Part shown: one piece after another, positions 681 to 40,003 of the stretch
Layout of the letters: every line of letters starts with the position of its first letter
How positions within the stretch are numbered: the stretch's first letter is position 1
Program-made: the position numbers and the translations under genes
The notes under the pieces: model-generated
Database searches by the model: none
Told to the model about the DNA's origin: nothing
Seen by the model: only the letters and a program-made list of their open reading frames with translations
Source of the DNA: an uncultured Gammaproteobacteria bacterium
GTDB taxonomy: Bacteria > Patescibacteriota > Patescibacteriia > Magasanikbacterales > UBA922
Assembly: GCA_964435035.1 (NCBI GenBank)
Contig: CAYSXR010000005.1
Coordinates: 10,564 to 67,434 of the forward strand
DNA: 56,871 bases
Direction of reading: 5' to 3'

Positions 681-1067
681 ATGAGAGTATCCGGCGTAAC
701 TATTCCTCGCGAAAAAAGAATCGTAATTGCGCTTACGTATATTTACGGTATTGGAAGTACCAAAGCAAAGAAAATTTTGGCTTCTGCAAAAGTACCTGAG
801 AGCACTCGGGTAAAAGCGTTGACCCAGGAACAAGAAGATGTAATCCGAAATATTATTGAAAAACAAGAAACTACTGAAGGAAACTTGAGACGTGAAATTT
901 CTTCAAATATCAAGCGTTTGAAGGATATCAAGTCCTACCGTGGTACGAGACATACAAAACGATTACCGCTTCGAGGGCAGAGAACGAAAACCAATAGTAG
1001 AACAACCCGAGGCAACAAACGAAACGTTGCTCCAAGTGGTAAAAAACCATCTGCGCAGAAGACCTAA
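681..1067 (+). CDS. rpsM: 30S ribosomal protein S13
   Basis: MRVSGVTIPREKRIVIALTYIYGIGSTKAKKIL is a typical S13 N-terminus. ATG 681 is preferred over the upstream TTG at 666. Confidence 0.93.
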   Translation: MRVSGVTIPREKRIVIALTYIYGIGSTKAKKILASAKVPESTRVKALTQEQEDVIRNIIEKQETTEGNLRREISSNIKRLKDIKSYRGTRHTKRLPLRGQRTKTNSRTTRGNKRNVAPSGKKPSAQKT

Positions 1068-1104
1068 TAGCTAGGGTGTATCCTTTATTTTCCTAAATTA
1101 CCGT

Positions 1105-2200: not shown

Positions 2201-2926
2201 ATGGATTATATTTTACTACCTTCGACAATCGAATTCCGAGAAACCGGTGATAAAAACATTGGTGAGCTCGTAGTTACTCCTTGTCATCAGGGATATGGTA
2301 CCACTCTTGGTAATTCTTTGAGACGAGTACTCCTTTCTTCAATCGAAGGCTCTGCTGTAGAGGCGGTGAAAATTGATGGAGTTCAACACGAATTTGCTGC
2401 AATCGAAGGAGTGCAGGAAGACGTGATTGAAGTTACCCTCAATTTGAAACAACTTGCAGTAATTTCTCACAGTGATACTCCAGTTGTGTTGACTTTAAAG
2501 AAAAAAGGTGTAGGTGAGGTGACTGCTGCTGATTTTGAAAAAAATGCTGATATTGAAATTGTAAATCCTGAATTAAAAATTGCTACCATTACCTCTGATA
2601 AGAAAGAACTTACTCTTGAAGTGATTATCGGCAAAGGATTGGGATATATTCCAGCTGCAGAAAAAGAGAGTAAGCATCTTGATTTGGGAACGATTGTAAT
2701 GGATTCTTTCTATTCACCAATCAAGGATGTTGGTTATTCAGTTGAAAATACTCGTGTAGGAGATGTAACTGATTACGAAAAGTTGACGATCAGAATTGAA
2801 ACCAATGGAACGATCTCTCCTCGTATTGCAGTAGAACGAGCAACCAAAATTCTTATGGACCACTATAGCCTTGTACTTGATGCGGCCGGTACCGCAGCGG
2901 GCACAGGTTCTGCTGGACAAGAATAA
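2201..2926 (+). CDS. rpoA: DNA-directed RNA polymerase alpha subunit, N-terminal domain only (241 aa)
   Basis: GYGTTLGNSLRRVLLSSIEGSAVEAVKIDGVQHEF is the alpha NTD motif. The protein ends in a Gly/Ala/Thr-rich tail at residue 241, and rplQ starts 20 nt later. Confidence 0.9.
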   Translation: MDYILLPSTIEFRETGDKNIGELVVTPCHQGYGTTLGNSLRRVLLSSIEGSAVEAVKIDGVQHEFAAIEGVQEDVIEVTLNLKQLAVISHSDTPVVLTLKKKGVGEVTAADFEKNADIEIVNPELKIATITSDKKELTLEVIIGKGLGYIPAAEKESKHLDLGTIVMDSFYSPIKDVGYSVENTRVGDVTDYEKLTIRIETNGTISPRIAVERATKILMDHYSLVLDAAGTAAGTGSAGQE

Positions 2927-4302: not shown

Positions 4303-5742
4303 ATGAAGACCATCTCCCTCGGCCAAAGTACACTCTATATGACAGGAGCATCAATTGCACAAAAGCTTATTTCGTTTGTGTATTTTGCAATAATTGCGCG
4401 TATTCTCGAACCAGGAGACACGGGAAAATATTTTTTTGCAATATCCTTTACTACGATTTTTGTTGTTTTTATCGATCTTGGACTGACCAATGTAATGGTT
4501 CGGGAAGGTGCAAAGGCAAAAGAGCGTGTATCTGAATTTTTATCATCAATCATTTTCTTAAAATTGTTTTTAGGATTGGCTACTTATGCGATTATGGTAG
4601 TCGTACTGAAGGCTCTTGGATACCATGTTGATACTCAAATCTTAGTACTCATATCTGGGATTACCATGCTTTCAGACTCACTGCAATTAAGTCTCTATGG
4701 GACACTTCGAGCACTCGGTAATATTAAATATGAGGCATATGGGATTATGGGTAGCCAGTTTTTGACCCTTGTACTCGGTACTCTATTTCTCTATTTCAAA
4801 TTCCCTTTGTATTTCCTCATGATTGCATTTCTTATACCGAGTTTCTTGAATACTTTATATGTATGGCTTGTTGCAGCAGTAAAATATCGGATTAAACTTC
4901 GTCCTCGCTATTCTCGAGAGATCATATTTTATTTACTACCGATCGCTGTACCTTTTGCGCTTGCGACCGTATTTGGACGTGTCTTCGCATATGCTGATTC
5001 AGTCTTACTATCAAAAATGGCAGGGGACGTTGCTGTGGGATGGTACAGTGTGCCATATAAAATTGCGTATGCGTTTCAATTTATCCCATTTGCACTTATT
5101 GCAGGACTCTACCCGCGAATGAGTGAATATTTTGCACATGACGAAAAGCGTCTCGGTGAAGTATTTTCTCAAGGATTGCGATATTTATTGATTGTCTCAA
5201 TCCCTATGTCTGTTGGGATTATTGTGTTAAGCGGAATAATAATTAATACGTTTTTTGGGCCAAAATATGCACCGTCTGTTGTACCACTTCAGATTCTCAT
5301 GGTAGGAGTCGTTGCAGGATTTGTAAATGTACTCTTGGGTGCATTACTTAATGCTACAGGTAAACAAAAAACTCAGACAACCTATGTAGGTATTACTATG
5401 CTCGTAAATATTGTGTTGAATATCATATTGATTCCAAAATTCAATATTCAGGGTGCTGCACTTGCTGCGACCGCAGGCAATATAGTACTTTTTATTATTT
5501 CATGGGTTACGGTATCAAAAAATATAACTATTCCATATGGGGAACTCCGTTCATTACTAGCTAAATTGGTACTAGTGAGTGCTATAATGGGTATGGTCGT
5601 GTGGTATACTTCAGCATATGTACATGTTCTTCTCGCAGCAATAATAGGTGCCCTAGTATTTGGAATACTTTTTATATTCATGAAAGGGGTATCAGCTGAG
5701 GACATTCAATATTTCAAATCAATTCGGTCAAAAACCTCATAA
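4303..5742 (+). CDS. polysaccharide/oligosaccharide flippase (MOP superfamily, Wzx-like)
   Basis: About 480 aa and multi-TM. The N-terminus (GASIAQKLISFVYFAIIARILEPGDTGKYFFAISF) is typical of the PST/Wzx family, and a glycosyltransferase follows. ATG 4303 is preferred over TTG 4279. Confidence 0.8.
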   Translation: MKTISLGQSTLYMTGASIAQKLISFVYFAIIARILEPGDTGKYFFAISFTTIFVVFIDLGLTNVMVREGAKAKERVSEFLSSIIFLKLFLGLATYAIMVVVLKALGYHVDTQILVLISGITMLSDSLQLSLYGTLRALGNIKYEAYGIMGSQFLTLVLGTLFLYFKFPLYFLMIAFLIPSFLNTLYVWLVAAVKYRIKLRPRYSREIIFYLLPIAVPFALATVFGRVFAYADSVLLSKMAGDVAVGWYSVPYKIAYAFQFIPFALIAGLYPRMSEYFAHDEKRLGEVFSQGLRYLLIVSIPMSVGIIVLSGIIINTFFGPKYAPSVVPLQILMVGVVAGFVNVLLGALLNATGKQKTQTTYVGITMLVNIVLNIILIPKFNIQGAALAATAGNIVLFIISWVTVSKNITIPYGELRSLLAKLVLVSAIMGMVVWYTSAYVHVLLAAIIGALVFGILFIFMKGVSAEDIQYFKSIRSKTS

Positions 5743-5745
5743 TGT

Positions 5746-6882
5746 ATGAAAAAAATACTTTTAGCTACCCTTGAATTCCCTCCCACTATTGGAGGTATTG
5801 CGACCTATGTCACACAATTTGCGCGTTCAATTGACCCTGAACATATACGGGTATATGCGCCCAAAATGGCAGGGGACCGTGTATTCGATGAGGGTGAATC
5901 TTATCCAATTTTTAGGAAAAAACAATTACTAACGTTTTTGTGGCCACGTTGGATCCCCACAGTATTCCATTTTTTTTCAATTGCAAAAAAAGAAAAAATA
6001 GAAATGGTTTTGGTAAATCATGTGCTTCCACTCGGATACGCTGCGTTCGTTTTGAAAAAGTTTAAAAAAATTCCGTATATTATTATTTCTCATGGAACGG
6101 ATGTACTCTATGCGACCGCGCATCCATGGAAAAAGAAAATGCTGAAGCGAGTGGTTGAGGGGGCAGAGCAAGTAGTTTTCAATAGCGAGTCAATCAAGCG
6201 AAGATTTTTGGAGCGATTACCTGAATTTGAACACAAGTCACTAGTCGTCTATCCATGTCCGGATAAAGCGTTTTTGGGTGCTGTAGATACTGAAAAAGTG
6301 GAAAAACTTAGGAGATCGCTTGCACTGCAAGGGAAAAAAGTAATTCTTTCGGTATCACGTATGGATATTGGTAAGGGGTTTCAGCACCTCGTACATGCAA
6401 TGCCTGAAATTTTGGCACGAGAACCACATACGGTGTGGATAGTGGTTGGTGATGGACCTAAGCGTGAGGAGATTTTTGAAGCAGTGCAAAAACTATCACT
6501 TCAAAATGTGGTACGTTTTATCGGATCCGTACCACATGAAGAATTGGCTGCATATTATCATCTTGCTGATCTTTTTGTATTATTAACACATACTGCAGGT
6601 GAGCGCGAAGAAGGGCTAGGACTGGTATTCCTCGAAGCTGCGTCTGCGGGGAGAGCAATTGTTGCGGGCAAAAGTGGAGGCGTAGAAGAGGCCGTAATTG
6701 ATGGAGAGACAGGGCGAGTATTCGATGTATATCACGAGGCAGGTAAAGTGGTTGATACTATTTCCGAATTATTGGGAGATAAAGAAAAACGTGACACCTA
6801 TGGATTAGCGGGTAAGCGTCGTATTGAAGGTGTGTTTGATTGGGGTATTCAGCTTGAAAAATTAAAACCTTGGTTAGATTAA
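5746..6882 (+). CDS. glycosyltransferase family 4 (GT-B, Glycos_transf_1)
   Basis: GGIATYV N-terminal motif; C-terminal EGLGLVFLEAASAGRAIVAGKSGGVEEAVIDGETG is the E-x7-E retaining GT4 signature. Confidence 0.88.
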   Translation: MKKILLATLEFPPTIGGIATYVTQFARSIDPEHIRVYAPKMAGDRVFDEGESYPIFRKKQLLTFLWPRWIPTVFHFFSIAKKEKIEMVLVNHVLPLGYAAFVLKKFKKIPYIIISHGTDVLYATAHPWKKKMLKRVVEGAEQVVFNSESIKRRFLERLPEFEHKSLVVYPCPDKAFLGAVDTEKVEKLRRSLALQGKKVILSVSRMDIGKGFQHLVHAMPEILAREPHTVWIVVGDGPKREEIFEAVQKLSLQNVVRFIGSVPHEELAAYYHLADLFVLLTHTAGEREEGLGLVFLEAASAGRAIVAGKSGGVEEAVIDGETGRVFDVYHEAGKVVDTISELLGDKEKRDTYGLAGKRRIEGVFDWGIQLEKLKPWLD

Positions 6883-6889
6883 TTAGTAT

Positions 6890-7501
6890 ATGAAATCTTT
6901 ACCACTCCGGGTTGATGAACAAATTGTTGCAGAAATTAGACGCTTTGGTGTTACTTATTTGTGGCGCTGGATGGGAGCAATTATCCCATTTGTAGTTGCA
7001 GGAGTCTACATGTTTTGGTTGTTTCGTCAAGGCACGATTGGTAGTATTGGTTTTGCTTTGCTTATTAGTATAGGAATTGCCGGATGTATTACAAACTACG
7101 TACGATTTCGAGGTACGGTTTTTATTCTCACTAATTATCGAATTATTGATATTGCAAAAGATGGTATTACTGGTAGGACTATTTCTGAAGCAGAGTTAGG
7201 TGATATTGAAGATGTAGTAGTGAGACAGCGTGGGCTCTGGAGAATGATACTCAATTATGGAACAGTTGAAATCAGAGTGCGTGATTCAAAAATACGGATT
7301 GATGTTGAATATGTGAGACGTCCACAAGGAGTGCAGCGTTTAATTAATGAGTTAAAAAAACAAACTAATGGTATTAGTAGTGGTCTGGGTCCTAGGTTTT
7401 CAGTTGAAGATATGCACAAAGGTATTACCGGACTTGATACAGAAGATCTGATCTATTTACGAAAAATAATTGAAGCTCGACTCAAACAATTGAGAGGATA
7501 A
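6890..7501 (+). CDS. membrane protein with a bacterial PH-like (bPH_2/YdbT-type) domain
   Basis: Two TM helices followed by a beta-rich segment (FILTNYRIIDIAKDG...GTVEIRVRD) resembling bPH_2 proteins. Assigned by eye only. Confidence 0.5.
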   Translation: MKSLPLRVDEQIVAEIRRFGVTYLWRWMGAIIPFVVAGVYMFWLFRQGTIGSIGFALLISIGIAGCITNYVRFRGTVFILTNYRIIDIAKDGITGRTISEAELGDIEDVVVRQRGLWRMILNYGTVEIRVRDSKIRIDVEYVRRPQGVQRLINELKKQTNGISSGLGPRFSVEDMHKGITGLDTEDLIYLRKIIEARLKQLRG

Positions 7502-31654: not shown

Positions 31655-33019
31655 ATGCCAATTATTTCCCACAATCCAGCAACTGGCGAAGATATACAAA
31701 AGTTTGAAGAGCTTACTGATGAACAAATAAAAGATAAAATCGCAAAAGCGCAATCAGCTTTTGAGTTGTACAAAAAAGTATCAATTGAAAAGCGATCCGA
31801 AATGCTTCGTCGTGTTGCTGTTCATCTCCGTGGCAAGAAGACTGTATATGGAACATTAATTACCGAAGAAATCGGTCGACCACTTGCTCCATCTATTGCT
31901 GAAATCGAAAAATGTGCGGTCGCATGTGAATATTATGCAGAACATGGTTCTGAAATGCTCAAACGTGAAATGGTTGCAACTGATGCGAAAGAAAGTTACG
32001 TATCGCTCGAACCTCTGGGAATAGTCTTTGCAGTCATGCCATGGAATTATCCTTTTTGGCAAGTATTGCGTTTTGCTGCACCCGCACTTATCGCTGGCAA
32101 CGTGGGATTGTTGAAACATGCGTCAAATGTTCCACAATGCGCAGAAGCAATCGAAAACTTATTTCTCGAATGTGGATACGAAGAGGGTATATTTCAAAAT
32201 ATATTGGTAAGCGGTGGGCGTACGGAGGTTATTATTCGTGATCCACGTGTAAAAGCAGTTACACTTACCGGAAGTGAATGGGCGGGGAGAAAAGTGGCAG
32301 AAATCGCAGGAGATGAGATTAAGCCAGTAGTATTGGAACTCGGTGGAAGTGACGCATTCATTGTTCTTGCAAGTGCAGATATTGAGAAAGCTGCACATGT
32401 GGGTGCTGCAGCACGACTGCAAAATTGCGGACAGAGCTGTATTGCAGCAAAGCGATTTATTATCGAAGAATCAGTATATGATAATTTTTTAGCATTATTT
32501 ACCACTGAATTCAAAAACTATATTCCAGATGATCCGAAGAAAGAAGGGGTATTGATTGGACCTATTGCTTCATCATCAGGATTGGAAGAAATAGAAAAAC
32601 AAGTGGTGTCTTCAATTGAAAAAGGGGCGAGTCTAGTAATTGGCGGGAATAGAATAGAGAAACCAGGTTATTTTTATACACCCACTATTTTGACGGGAGT
32701 AAAATCTGGAATGCCTGCGTATAATGAAGAAATTTTTGGGCCTGTAGCTTCAGTTATTAAAGTAAAGGACGAAAGAGAAGCAATTGCTGTCGCAAATGAT
32801 TCTCCATTCGGATTAGGAAGTTCCTTATGGTCGAACGATCGAGAACAGATTGAGCGATTAATACCACAAATCGAAGCTGGATGCGTGTTTGTAAATTCAA
32901 TGGTAAAATCAGATCCACGCCTTCCGTTTGGTGGAATAAAAAAATCCGGGATAGGTCGTGAACTCTCATATTTTGGACTTCGGGAGTTTGTGAATGTAAA
33001 AACTGTTTCAATTCAATAA
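31655..33019 (+). CDS. NAD(P)-dependent aldehyde dehydrogenase, succinate-semialdehyde dehydrogenase-like
   Basis: FPFWQV, LELGGSDAFIV, catalytic-Cys region QNCGQSCIAAKRF, EEIFGPV, PFGGIKKSGIGRE. 454 aa. Confidence 0.85.
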   Translation: MPIISHNPATGEDIQKFEELTDEQIKDKIAKAQSAFELYKKVSIEKRSEMLRRVAVHLRGKKTVYGTLITEEIGRPLAPSIAEIEKCAVACEYYAEHGSEMLKREMVATDAKESYVSLEPLGIVFAVMPWNYPFWQVLRFAAPALIAGNVGLLKHASNVPQCAEAIENLFLECGYEEGIFQNILVSGGRTEVIIRDPRVKAVTLTGSEWAGRKVAEIAGDEIKPVVLELGGSDAFIVLASADIEKAAHVGAAARLQNCGQSCIAAKRFIIEESVYDNFLALFTTEFKNYIPDDPKKEGVLIGPIASSSGLEEIEKQVVSSIEKGASLVIGGNRIEKPGYFYTPTILTGVKSGMPAYNEEIFGPVASVIKVKDEREAIAVANDSPFGLGSSLWSNDREQIERLIPQIEAGCVFVNSMVKSDPRLPFGGIKKSGIGRELSYFGLREFVNVKTVSIQ

Positions 33020-39006: not shown

Positions 39007-39582
39007 ATGAAAAAAGTGTTAATTGGACTTGGAGTACTTCTCGTGTTATTTATTTTATTCATCTGGTGGGGAAGTACCATAGAAACTCCTCCGTCTGATG
39101 AAGGTACCGTAGAAAATACTACCACAGAGCTGGATAATCAAAATTTCACTTCTGACAAAGGAAATTTCTCAATTTATTTTGAAAGTACTCCACAATACGT
39201 GCCAGGTACTATGACTACTTCAAAGGGTGAAACCTATCCGACGCATCTCTATCAGACCAGGGCAGCTGACGGAAGTGTGTGGCAAGCCTTATATACTGAA
39301 TATCCAAAAAGTTCTGATGTTTCCAATCCGGAAAATGTATTATTGAATACTGTTCGAGGAACTGAATCTTCAGTAGAGGGAAAAATTACTACAACACAGA
39401 TCGGAACATACCAAGGTTTTCCTTCAATAGACTATACCATCAGTATTCCTGAACAAAAGTACGTATTCAAGGGTAGAAATATTCTCAATGGTCACAAGCT
39501 ATATTCAATAGTCTATATTTTTGATGAAGGCAAAGAAGTGGCTTCTGAAAACTTCTTCAATTCGCTGAAAATTGGTAAATAG
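39007..39582 (+). CDS. signal-anchored secreted protein, paralog family member B
   Basis: Same motifs as 38410..38967. The first ~45 nt, and the NFTSDKGNFSIYFE-coding stretch, are identical at nucleotide level. Confidence 0.7.
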   Translation: MKKVLIGLGVLLVLFILFIWWGSTIETPPSDEGTVENTTTELDNQNFTSDKGNFSIYFESTPQYVPGTMTTSKGETYPTHLYQTRAADGSVWQALYTEYPKSSDVSNPENVLLNTVRGTESSVEGKITTTQIGTYQGFPSIDYTISIPEQKYVFKGRNILNGHKLYSIVYIFDEGKEVASENFFNSLKIGK

Positions 39583-39600
39583 GCTTTCCAAAAACATATA

Positions 39601-39634
39601 AAAAATACTCTCTAATATTAGAGAGTATTTTTTT
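39601..39634. terminator. bidirectional intrinsic terminator
   Basis: AAAAATACTCTC-TAATATTA-GAGAGTATTTTT, between paralog B (+) and the tRNA-Asn 3-prime end (-). Confidence 0.8.
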
Positions 39635-39635
39635 G

Positions 39636-40003
39636 CTCGGCGGGCGGGGCTCGAACCCGCGACCCACTGGTTACAGTTTCCTCTCTCTTTCAAGAGAGAC
39701 TGGACTATGTCATCACCCATGCCGTAAACCTGGAAAATAAATCCTCCAAGAGCCTGGGGGTGCGGAGCGCTTCCCGCCCCGACAATGTCGGGGAAGTACT
39801 CCCATAAAGGGATAGTCTCTGAACCTTCCTAACCCATTACTAATTCCAGTAAAACTGGAGTATCAAGTTAGGCTTGGCTGCAGGTTACCCTATGAAATTC
39901 ATAGTAGCGGTTTCCTGCAATTCACTCCGTTGGCATCCTGACATTACTATCAGGAGCTGCTAATTTTTAACAGCCAGTTGCTCTACCACTGAGCTACCGC
40001 CGA
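39636..40003 (-). tRNA. tRNA-Asn (anticodon GTT) interrupted by a group I intron in the anticodon loop
   Basis: Exon 1 is 40003-39970 (TCGGCGG TA GCTC AGTGGTA GAGC A ACTGG CTGT). Exon 2 is 39673-39636 (TAA CCAGT GGGTC GCGGG TTCGAGC CCCGC CCGCCGA G). Joined, they give a 72-nt cloverleaf with loop CTGTTAA. Confidence 0.85.
39674..39969 (-). ncRNA. group I self-splicing intron (296 nt, no ORF)
   Basis: P1: exon GCUGU pairs with intron GCAGC, with a U-G wobble at the splice site. The terminal intron nucleotide is G (39674). Core elements are GCAGCCAAGCCUAAC (plus coords 39867-39883), GGUUCAGAGACUAU (39812-39825) and GACAUAGUCC (39702-39711), matching the Tetrahymena and Azoarcus cores. Confidence 0.85.

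Follow-up and report, generated by a model that had tools for sequence, protein, structure and literature searches.

A tRNA-Asn(GUU) gene of Candidatus Magasanikbacteria split by a group I intron without an open reading frame

The split tRNA-Asn gene

The stretch of contig analysed here, referred to as the window, comprises 56,871 nucleotides (nt) and harbours on its minus strand a gene for tRNA-Asn(GUU) whose two exons are separated by a group I intron in the anticodon loop. Counts and coordinates refer to this window unless another contig is named, and the tRNA gene and its intron are read on the minus strand throughout. We consider it highly probable that Candidatus Magasanikbacteria, within the candidate phyla radiation (CPR; Patescibacteria), has here a functional gene for tRNA-Asn(GUU), split between U35 and U36 by a 296-nt group I intron containing no open reading frame (ORF). 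The gene consists of the following parts:

40003-39970, minus strand: 5' exon of tRNA-Asn(GUU), 34 nt, tRNA positions 1-35, UCGGCGG...GGCUGU, full sequence UCGGCGGUAGCUCAGUGGUAGAGCAACUGGCUGU
39969-39674, minus strand: group I intron, 296 nt, from UAAAAAUUAGCAGC (start) to GGAAACUG (end), ORF-less, apparently IA-like (T4 td-like)
39673-39636, minus strand: 3' exon of tRNA-Asn, 38 nt, UAACCAGU...CCGCCGAG, full sequence UAACCAGUGGGUCGCGGGUUCGAGCCCCGCCCGCCGAG, from U36 to the discriminator base G73

The 3' end of the 5' exon supplies the anticodon bases G34 and U35, and no CCA is encoded at the end of the 3' exon. When the exons were joined in silico, ARAGORN called the resulting 72-mer as tRNA-Asn(gtt) with a regular cloverleaf, the anticodon loop CUGUUAA, a U1-A72 pair and G73; the split gene, its exon lengths and its coordinates had been proposed in a first-pass annotation made from the letters of the DNA, and all proved correct. 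G73 and the U1-A72 pair are identity elements of bacterial tRNA-Asn, and U1, A72 and G73 are all present in the spliced sequence. The tRNA starts with U in every member of the intron family described below, and the U1 of tRNA-Asn has been noted in the literature (PMC5733544).

The Rfam model RF00028 (Intron_gpI) matches positions 39979-39681 of the minus strand over model positions 1-253 of 253, with 88.1 bits against a gathering score of 50 (E 3.5e-21). This score is far beyond chance and bears out the group I identity first suggested by eye. Under default settings the tRNAs that ARAGORN calls in the window are limited to those for Gly, Thr and Gln, and the split locus has no match to the Rfam tRNA model; with both blank at this position, the tRNA-Asn gene is invisible to ordinary scanners, as had been anticipated. 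No ORF of at least 40 amino acids (aa) lies inside the intron, in agreement with its earlier description as ORF-less. A 71-aa ORF at 39505-39720, which continues through the 3' exon and the terminator, was taken as spurious.

The splice register

The register of the intron is given by its P1 helix:

39955-39975, minus strand: P1, exon G30-U35 and intron UAA (39975-39967) against the guide UUAGCAGCU (39963-39955), from the Rfam alignment

Here GGCUGU/UAA (the slash marking the splice site) pairs with UUAGCAGCU across a minimal loop of 3 nt, with a wobble pair, U35·G, at the 5' splice site. The intron ends in a G at 39674, the omega-G. Both the pairing with its wobble, which is seen in the sequence and in the Rfam alignment, and the G before the 3' splice site agree with the first-pass annotation. 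UAA forms the first three bases of the intron as well as of the 3' exon, and both copies are able to pair with the guide UUA located just 5' of the guide G; judged by its pairing potential, this arrangement is the classical P1-extension/P10 exchange.

The pairs C32-G, U33-A, G34-C and U35·G are found in 35/35 distinct ORF-less members of the intron family. All 61 delimited family members (61/61) end in G, a count that is not independent because the register used for delimiting them required a terminal G. The arrangement GGCUGU/...CUG/UAACC, which places the intron between positions 35 and 36 and yields the anticodon GUU, is the only register that combines a U·G wobble with a terminal G. The position 35/36 originally proposed for the splice site is thus supported by the U·G/omega-G register, by 35 of 35 relatives and by an intron-less orthologue.

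Anatomy and subtype of the intron

Folded by itself, the intron has a minimum free energy (MFE) structure of -109 kcal/mol (z = -4.4) that contains P2, P3, P4-P5-P5a, P6 with a branched P6a, P7.1, P7.2, a long P8 and P9. The core helices, whose ability to fold the first-pass annotation had taken as decisive, are accordingly found in P2, P3, P4-P6, P8 and P9, with covariation in addition. In the order in which the strands are transcribed, the elements are:

39936-39955, minus strand: P2 hairpin with a GUAA (GNRA) tetraloop, MFE fold, double compensatory changes
39923-39929, minus strand: 5' strand of P3, CGGAGUG, pairing with 39769-39763
39879-39919, minus strand: P4-P5-P5a-P4' arm, from the MFE fold, family hairpin folds and orthologue covariation
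39823-39878, minus strand: P6 (GCC/GGU) with a branched P6a extension, MFE fold, hairpin in 35/35 relatives with 34 distinct sequences
39812-39817, minus strand: 5' strand of P7, GACUAU; the G and the bulged A before the P7 strand occupy the usual position of the guanosine-binding site
39801-39811, minus strand: P7.1 hairpin CCC-UUUAU-GGG, followed by AGUA, MFE fold, counterpart in td GACUAUCCCUUUGGGGAGUA
39774-39796, minus strand: P7.2 hairpin with the conserved joiner GAAG after it, in 35/35 relatives with 32 distinct sequences, compensatory changes
39763-39769, minus strand: 3' strand of P3, CGCUCCG, from fold and covariation
39714-39762, minus strand: P8 extended hairpin, from fold and covariation
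39703-39713, minus strand: J8/7 and the 3' strand of P7, AUGACAUAGUC, from the Rfam alignment, conserved in all relatives
39680-39699, minus strand: P9 hairpin of 8 base pairs (bp) with a GAAA tetraloop, from the fold, compensatory changes

P7 is formed by GACUAU and AUAGUC (39703-39708) and makes a pseudoknot with P3, which a nested fold is unable to draw. After P9, a 7-nt tail (GAAACUG) ends in the omega-G at 39674. The Rfam model treats P7.1 and P7.2, located between P7 and P3', as an insertion. The core had been described as closely resembling those of the Azoarcus and Tetrahymena introns; the strings quoted for this, GCAGCCAAGCCUAAC, GGUUCAGAGACUAU and GACAUAGUCC, are all present, but the likeness extends only to what is generic for group I cores.

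The presence of hairpins P7.1 and P7.2 in domain 7 defines group IA (PMC4227781, PMC3984707). By its architecture the window intron is IA-like, and more precisely td-like, and not IC3, because it has the element order of the bacteriophage T4 td intron and nearly the same P7-P7.1-AGUA string. For this comparison the 3' half of the td intron was confirmed at 100% identity in T4 records, one of which carries the GenBank note 'group 1A intron in td'. The td order is P7 GACUAU, P7.1 CCC-UUUG-GGG, AGUA, P7.2, GAAA, P3' GAUAGA, P8 and GAUAUAGUC, with the 5' strand of P3, UCUAUC, located upstream. The window intron shares the succession P7, P7.1, AGUA, P7.2, GAAA (GAAG in the window), P3', P8 and P7', and its P7-P7.1 string GACUAUCCCUUUAUGGGAGUA is nearly identical to GACUAUCCCUUUGGGGAGUA of td. 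The two differ in that the td and other phage IA introns reside in phage protein-coding genes and the window intron in a tRNA gene. Nor does it conform strictly to IA2, which has an extended domain 9 (P9.0, P9.1, P9.2; PMC4227781) in place of the single short P9 found here.

In many family members (the window copy, L101, L119 and L167 among them), P7.2 opens with CUU and closes with CGG, which recurrently places a U·C mismatch at position three, followed by the invariant GAAG; mismatch and joiner may together be a tertiary-contact motif.

Covariation and structural constraint

Structural constraint was assessed in an alignment of six intron-bearing orthologues and one intron-less allele, the structure tested being the tRNA cloverleaf together with P1-P9. 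Standard pairs are formed in 96.8% of the alignment cells. Double-sided pair changes numbered 22, as against 9.5 ± 2.1 in shuffles (0/500 reached 22), and slid controls gave at most 8 double-change pairs. Within the ribozyme the double changes occur in P2 (6 of its 8 pairs), P5a, P6a, P7.2 and P9, and within the tRNA they occur in the acceptor stem (G7-C66 to A-U), the anticodon stem and the T stem. The P7 pairing is invariant in all relatives and is uninformative for covariation because it never varies.

A wider test was made on the 35 distinct ORF-less family members by anchored helix extraction in Python. In these members covariation is seen at 4 of the 7 P3 positions and at one position of P4, and RNAfold predicts hairpins of at least 3 bp for P2, P5, P6a, P7.2, P8 and P9 in 34-35 of the 35, with 31-34 distinct sequences each. 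A P7.1 stem of at least 3 bp is predicted in 30/35, with 23 distinct sequences. GNRA tetraloops are present in L2 of 35/35 and in L9 of 34/35 relatives. This comparative analysis supports every helix of the proposed structure, and the occurrence of covariation in both ribozyme and tRNA shows that both are under selection for structure. The double changes in the two parts argue strongly against a pseudogene.

Flanking genes and close relatives

The split tRNA gene follows a run of genes on the same strand and is bordered by putative expression signals:

upstream neighbours, in order, minus strand: S11 D-Ala-D-Ala carboxypeptidase-like protein (765 aa), LigB/Memo (264 aa), PriA (639 aa) and Def
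40649-40152, minus strand: peptide deformylase Def, 165 aa, the last gene before the tRNA
40130-40108, minus strand: terminator-like hairpin after def
40052-40024, minus strand: promoter-like TTGACT-17 nt-TATACT, 10/12 consensus matches, about 20 nt upstream of where the tRNA begins
39633-39600, minus strand: intrinsic-terminator-like hairpin (15 pairs) with a T run, immediately following the 3' end of the tRNA

With these sites the split tRNA gene looks like a transcription unit of its own. Where the homologues of Def are named, they belong to Candidatus Magasanikbacteria.

A scan of one genome per GTDB species with a pattern covering P1 and J3/4, CTGTTAAN{2,12}TTAGCAGN{20,50}GAATTGC, gave 81 matches, of which 78 were due to chance and three (L053, L061 and L076) were real; the pattern is too specific to the subfamily of the window. 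The closest of the three, L061 (CAYUTO010000001.1, a 290-kb contig), is gene-for-gene syntenic with the window, the locus being 97.8% identical and Def 91%. The metagenome-assembled genome to which L061 belongs was deposited as 'uncultured Gammaproteobacteria bacterium' and is evidently a mislabelled Magasanikbacteria genome. L076 (95% identity) and L053 (92% identity) are likewise from Magasanikbacteria. In all three, exons and intron are conserved and the flanks are divergent.

More syntenic contigs were located by way of Def homologues. In L082 (GCA_964565405.1; Def 81%), an intron-less tRNA-Asn(GUU) is found directly after def at 4544-4618 (RF00005, 71.4 bits), and its exons are nearly the same as those of the window. 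Intron-bearing tRNA-Asn genes 77-78% identical to that of the window are found in L085/L086 (Def 73%; 5254-5603, minus strand) and in L087 (Def 73%; 6613-6978, plus strand), near but not adjoining def, at distances of 0.7-2 kb and in either orientation. This placement suggests joint movement of the tRNA gene with its intron inside this neighbourhood. No tRNA-Asn was found within 4 kb in L084 (Def 76%), nor within 10 kb of def in the distant Magasanikbacteria L329, L330 and L331 (in L329 only about 2.4 kb downstream of def were available); from the latter three, the linkage of def and tRNA-Asn appears confined to a close clade.

Alleles with the intron (the window, L061, L076, L053, L085 and L087) and without it (L082) thus coexist among close relatives. 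By Def identity, L082 (81%) is closer to the window than are three intron-bearing relatives (73-76%). Its closeness and its intron-less state together point to precise intron loss or to repeated gain.

The intron family across the CPR

The window intron is one ORF-less member of an intron family that is abundant in the CPR and of a well-understood kind. The family was surveyed with a pattern for the P7-P7.1 core (GTTCAGAGACTATCC, 3-12 nt, GGAGTA) in metagenome and viral collections, with at least 120 contigs from each, and as the sample is selected by this pattern the counts are lower bounds. Among the at least 120 metagenome matches listed there are 60 complete tRNA-Asn(GUU) genes split after U35, of which 55 were obtained directly and five after derivation of the register (L094, L126, L143, L160 and L186, with L143 by direct reading of the sequence). 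About five more genes of the same kind among these matches are cut by contig ends. Two of the matches listed are tRNA-Asp(GUC) genes split at 35/36 as CCUGU/...G/CACGCG (L114, about 843-1084, minus strand; L124, about 2538-2796, plus strand). The remaining hosts with GUN anticodons reported by ARAGORN in intron mode (His, Tyr, Ser and Pyl) were rejected, as the re-derived register gives tRNA-Asn, and Asp is the sole genuine second host among the matches listed. The target of the family appears to be the CUGU sequence common to anticodon loops with G34-U35.

All 12 family loci tested with Rfam (12/12) are Intron_gpI, with 62-92 bits, and the existence of the family is supported by these observations. 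Proteins on four of the contigs fall in clusters named Jacksonbacteria/Parcubacteria, Harrisonbacteria, Paceibacterota and Magasanikbacteria, and from these four names the family is seen to be CPR-wide. The first-pass annotation had regarded an Asn host as unusual. Compared with the classical literature it is, but the same family occupies the same site in 60 of the at least 120 metagenome matches listed, in several CPR lineages.

In most of the loci L088-L207, as in the window, ARAGORN with introns allowed gives 'tRNA-Thr(tgt) i(33,N)', the intron being shifted by two bases. In automated annotation, this could produce spurious tRNA-Thr genes together with an apparent lack of tRNA-Asn.

Endonuclease-like ORFs and mobility

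Among 55 delimited tRNA-Asn introns, 25 are longer than 400 nt (441-677 nt), and all 25 carry a sense ORF of 79-119 aa. These introns are the following:

ORF-bearing introns: L099, L108, L110, L117, L133, L139-L142, L144, L150, L159, L164, L166, L171, L182, L184, L190, L193, L195, L200, L201, L206, L207 and others

In almost all of them the start of the ORF lies about 6-48 nt from the 5' end of the intron, which corresponds to the P1 loop, and its last codons (...TQLP) overlap the internal guide sequence. The proteins constitute one family with a mean column identity of 66% and invariant C-x2-C...HH...C-x2-C-H motifs. In the PDB, the family profile has its best match in a group II intron maturase, in the HNH endonuclease domain (6me0_C, E 8e-5), and also matches McrA (6ghc); a search of the intron ORFs against NCBIfam matched no family. 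The ORF-bearing relatives probably home by means of this HNH-like protein.

The 252-nt ORF-less intron of L146 keeps the last approximately ten codons of the HNH ORF (HREVHEGSTQL) before the guide, with the 5' region GAACACACGTCGTGAAGTGCACGAAGGTTCTACGCAGC; this 3' remnant indicates that the ORF was deleted. No trace of the HNH ORF was found in the window intron, which is therefore not counted among the endonuclease-bearing copies. Most likely, the window copy has lost the ORF or never had one, is immobile and vertically inherited, and persists because it splices.

Elsewhere in the window, a coding region at 32749-32871 (minus strand) weakly resembles the intron-encoded HNH-like proteins in tblastn (E 0.006, 33-38% identity over about 40 aa), a likeness that may reflect no more than a shared zinc-ribbon or HNH motif.

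Proposed splicing mechanism and alternative explanations

The architecture suggests a guanosine-initiated, two-step self-splicing reaction at U35/U36. The precursor would be transcribed from the local promoter-like site (40052-40024) to the terminator-like hairpin (39633-39600). Exon bases G30-U35 would then pair with the guide GCAGC(U) to form P1, bringing the U35·G wobble to the 5' splice site, and an exogenous guanosine bound in P7 would attack after U35. The terminal G at 39674 would next take the same site in P7, and the UAA of the 3' exon would pair with the guide UUA to form P10. Finally, the free 3'-OH of U35 would attack after the terminal G, giving the 72-nt tRNA with the loop CUGUUAA and releasing the intron.

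Several points weigh against this reading of the locus. P1 takes up G30 and G31, which are part of the anticodon stem as well; the precursor could thus fold in a more complicated way than outlined. P10 comprises just 3 bp in the window, and by a simple rule 19 of the 35 relatives are without it. There is one G·A mismatch in P8 of the window subfamily (alignment pair 270/305). The promoter and terminator sites are consensus matches, and self-splicing is itself deduced from the fold. A second tRNA-Asn was not found in the 57-kb window, and this census extends to the window only. For the relatives, the HNH assignment of the ORFs is weak, the Pfam HNH scores of 18-20.6 bits being below the cut-off of 21.4.

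For the window region, ARAGORN in intron mode (-i) reports 'tRNA-Thr (tgt) i(33,296)', and the same call is made for many relatives. A tRNA-Thr(UGU) gene with its intron two bases further upstream would nevertheless break the group I rules at both ends, since the 5' splice site would fall after U33, which is paired with A and not with G in P1, and the 3' splice site after a C. The wobble at U35 in 35/35 relatives, the intron-less orthologue in L082, which is tRNA-Asn(GUU), and the fit of U1-A72 and G73 to bacterial tRNA-Asn likewise speak for Asn, and we give the Thr register practically no credence. The locus could in principle also be a dead gene, that is, a redundant tRNA-Asn disrupted by the intron or a decayed remnant, unexpressed and unspliced, with an intact copy elsewhere serving translation. 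A window of just 57 kb leaves room in the genome for such a second copy, but exons and intron are 92-98% conserved, against diverging flanks, in three further genomes at species level, and the distant copies (77-78% identity) keep every helix by compensatory changes, including those in the acceptor stem (G7-C66 to A-U) and in the T stem. The catalytic-core strings are all intact and the gene is flanked by promoter-like and terminator-like sites of its own, which makes a dead gene very improbable.

It is also conceivable, though unlikely, that the intron is real but not autonomous, either requiring a protein cofactor or an RNA chaperone or acting as a gate on the supply of tRNA-Asn. Some group I introns do need cofactors, e.g. 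CYT-18 and CYT-19 (PMC3984707), P1 competes with the lower anticodon stem, and the family is widely retained in reduced CPR genomes. Against such dependence, the ribozyme core is complete, the GNRA tetraloops on P2 and P9 are of the kind that stabilises small self-splicing introns of bacteria and phages, and none of the genes linked to the locus is a candidate for a cofactor; the presence or absence of the intron among close relatives (the window and L082) is an argument against any regulatory role being indispensable. The reading that we prefer is a functional tRNA-Asn(GUU) gene whose intron splices itself.

Relation to known introns

Classical tRNA introns are inserted at 34/35 (Leu) or at 36/37 (fMet, Ile and Arg). 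The IC3 introns comprise those of cyanobacterial and plastid tRNA-Leu(UAA), cyanobacterial tRNA-fMet, Azoarcus tRNA-Ile(CAU) and Agrobacterium tRNA-Arg(CCU). The window intron resembles them in the 5' exon U that is wobble-paired with G in P1 and in the GNRA tetraloops on P2 and P9. It differs from them in having P7.1 and P7.2, which are absent from IC3 introns such as the 205-nt Azoarcus intron, as well as in its site (35/36) and its host (Asn). A further likeness is that the genes are missed by tRNA scanners; the authors of tRNAscan-SE describe fMet and Ile2 tRNA genes hidden by group I introns (PMC8450103). Group I introns in bacterial tRNA genes are a textbook class (PMC3984707).

An endonuclease ORF within a tRNA intron has a precedent in the Synechocystis tRNA-fMet intron with I-Ssp6803I (Bonocora and Shub 2001, as cited in PMC3984707). 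In contrast to that intron, the enzyme of the present family is predicted, HNH-like, about 105 aa long and located in the P1 loop, and the window copy has no ORF. The family further resembles endonuclease-bearing tRNA introns in the coexistence of intron-plus and intron-minus alleles among close relatives. The td intron differs in this respect too, as it encodes the GIY-YIG enzyme I-TevI further downstream.

Group I introns that hide CPR tRNA genes from scanners were reported by Lui et al. 2021 (PMC8172020), where the tRNAs and sites are unspecified; 'intron' and 'Asn' are absent from the supplements of that paper. Nakagawa et al. 2025 (bioRxiv 10.1101/2025.07.03.662931, cited in PMC12641178) deals, by its title, with tRNA introns of Patescibacteria. 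Our literature search, which did not extend to the contents of Nakagawa et al. 2025, returned no paper naming a group I intron in a bacterial tRNA-Asn.

There is nothing conceptually new for group I introns at this locus, which is a sound annotation of an ordinary member of a large CPR intron family and not a surprise. The interest lies at the level of the family, in an IA architecture within a tRNA gene, the 35/36 site, the Asn and Asp hosts and the HNH ORFs of the P1 loop, and may already have been described. It is a tentative proposal, and one that we hold to be rather doubtful, that this is a formally undescribed td-like IA family which hits tRNA-Asn, and occasionally tRNA-Asp, at CUGU/N in position 35/36 and spreads by the approximately 105-aa HNH protein of the P1 loop, and that it represents a second, independent colonisation of tRNA genes, probably from a phage reservoir. 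If true, this would explain systematic calls of 'missing tRNA-Asn' in CPR genomes.

For genome annotation, tRNA-Asn would be reported as missing from the genome of the window and from many other CPR genomes, affecting completeness checks and codon-usage inferences for CPR bins. Were the intron-bearing gene the sole tRNA-Asn, decoding of both AAC and AAU would depend on ribozyme activity. The family also indicates that tRNA genes of bacteria with reduced genomes host phage-type (IA) introns besides the classical IC3 introns, and its HNH-ORF copies, ORF-remnant copies, ORF-less copies and intron-less alleles form a natural series in which the gain and decay of homing-endonuclease genes could be studied.

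Viral introns with the same core

The core pattern (GTTCAGAGACTATCC...GGAGTA) is present in at least 120 viral contigs (IMG/VR, L208-L327). A tRNA-like host was seen in one of these listed contigs (L287, called 'Pyl' by ARAGORN). The viral introns, which Rfam confirms as group I, have other guide sequences and longer 3' domains; for example, the intron of L214 (4959-5198) splits a gene for a B12-dependent ribonucleotide reductase. The shared core string is therefore a signature that is common to ordinary phage IA introns in protein-coding genes. BLAST of the window intron against phage genomes, a method insensitive to ribozyme cores, gave only a 37-nt core match to Lak megaphages. A phage origin of the tRNA intron family is plausible. 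In two viral contigs, a pair of introns is found within 1 kb (L226, 4945-5231 and 5600-5875; L211, 4932-5152 and 5233-5448).

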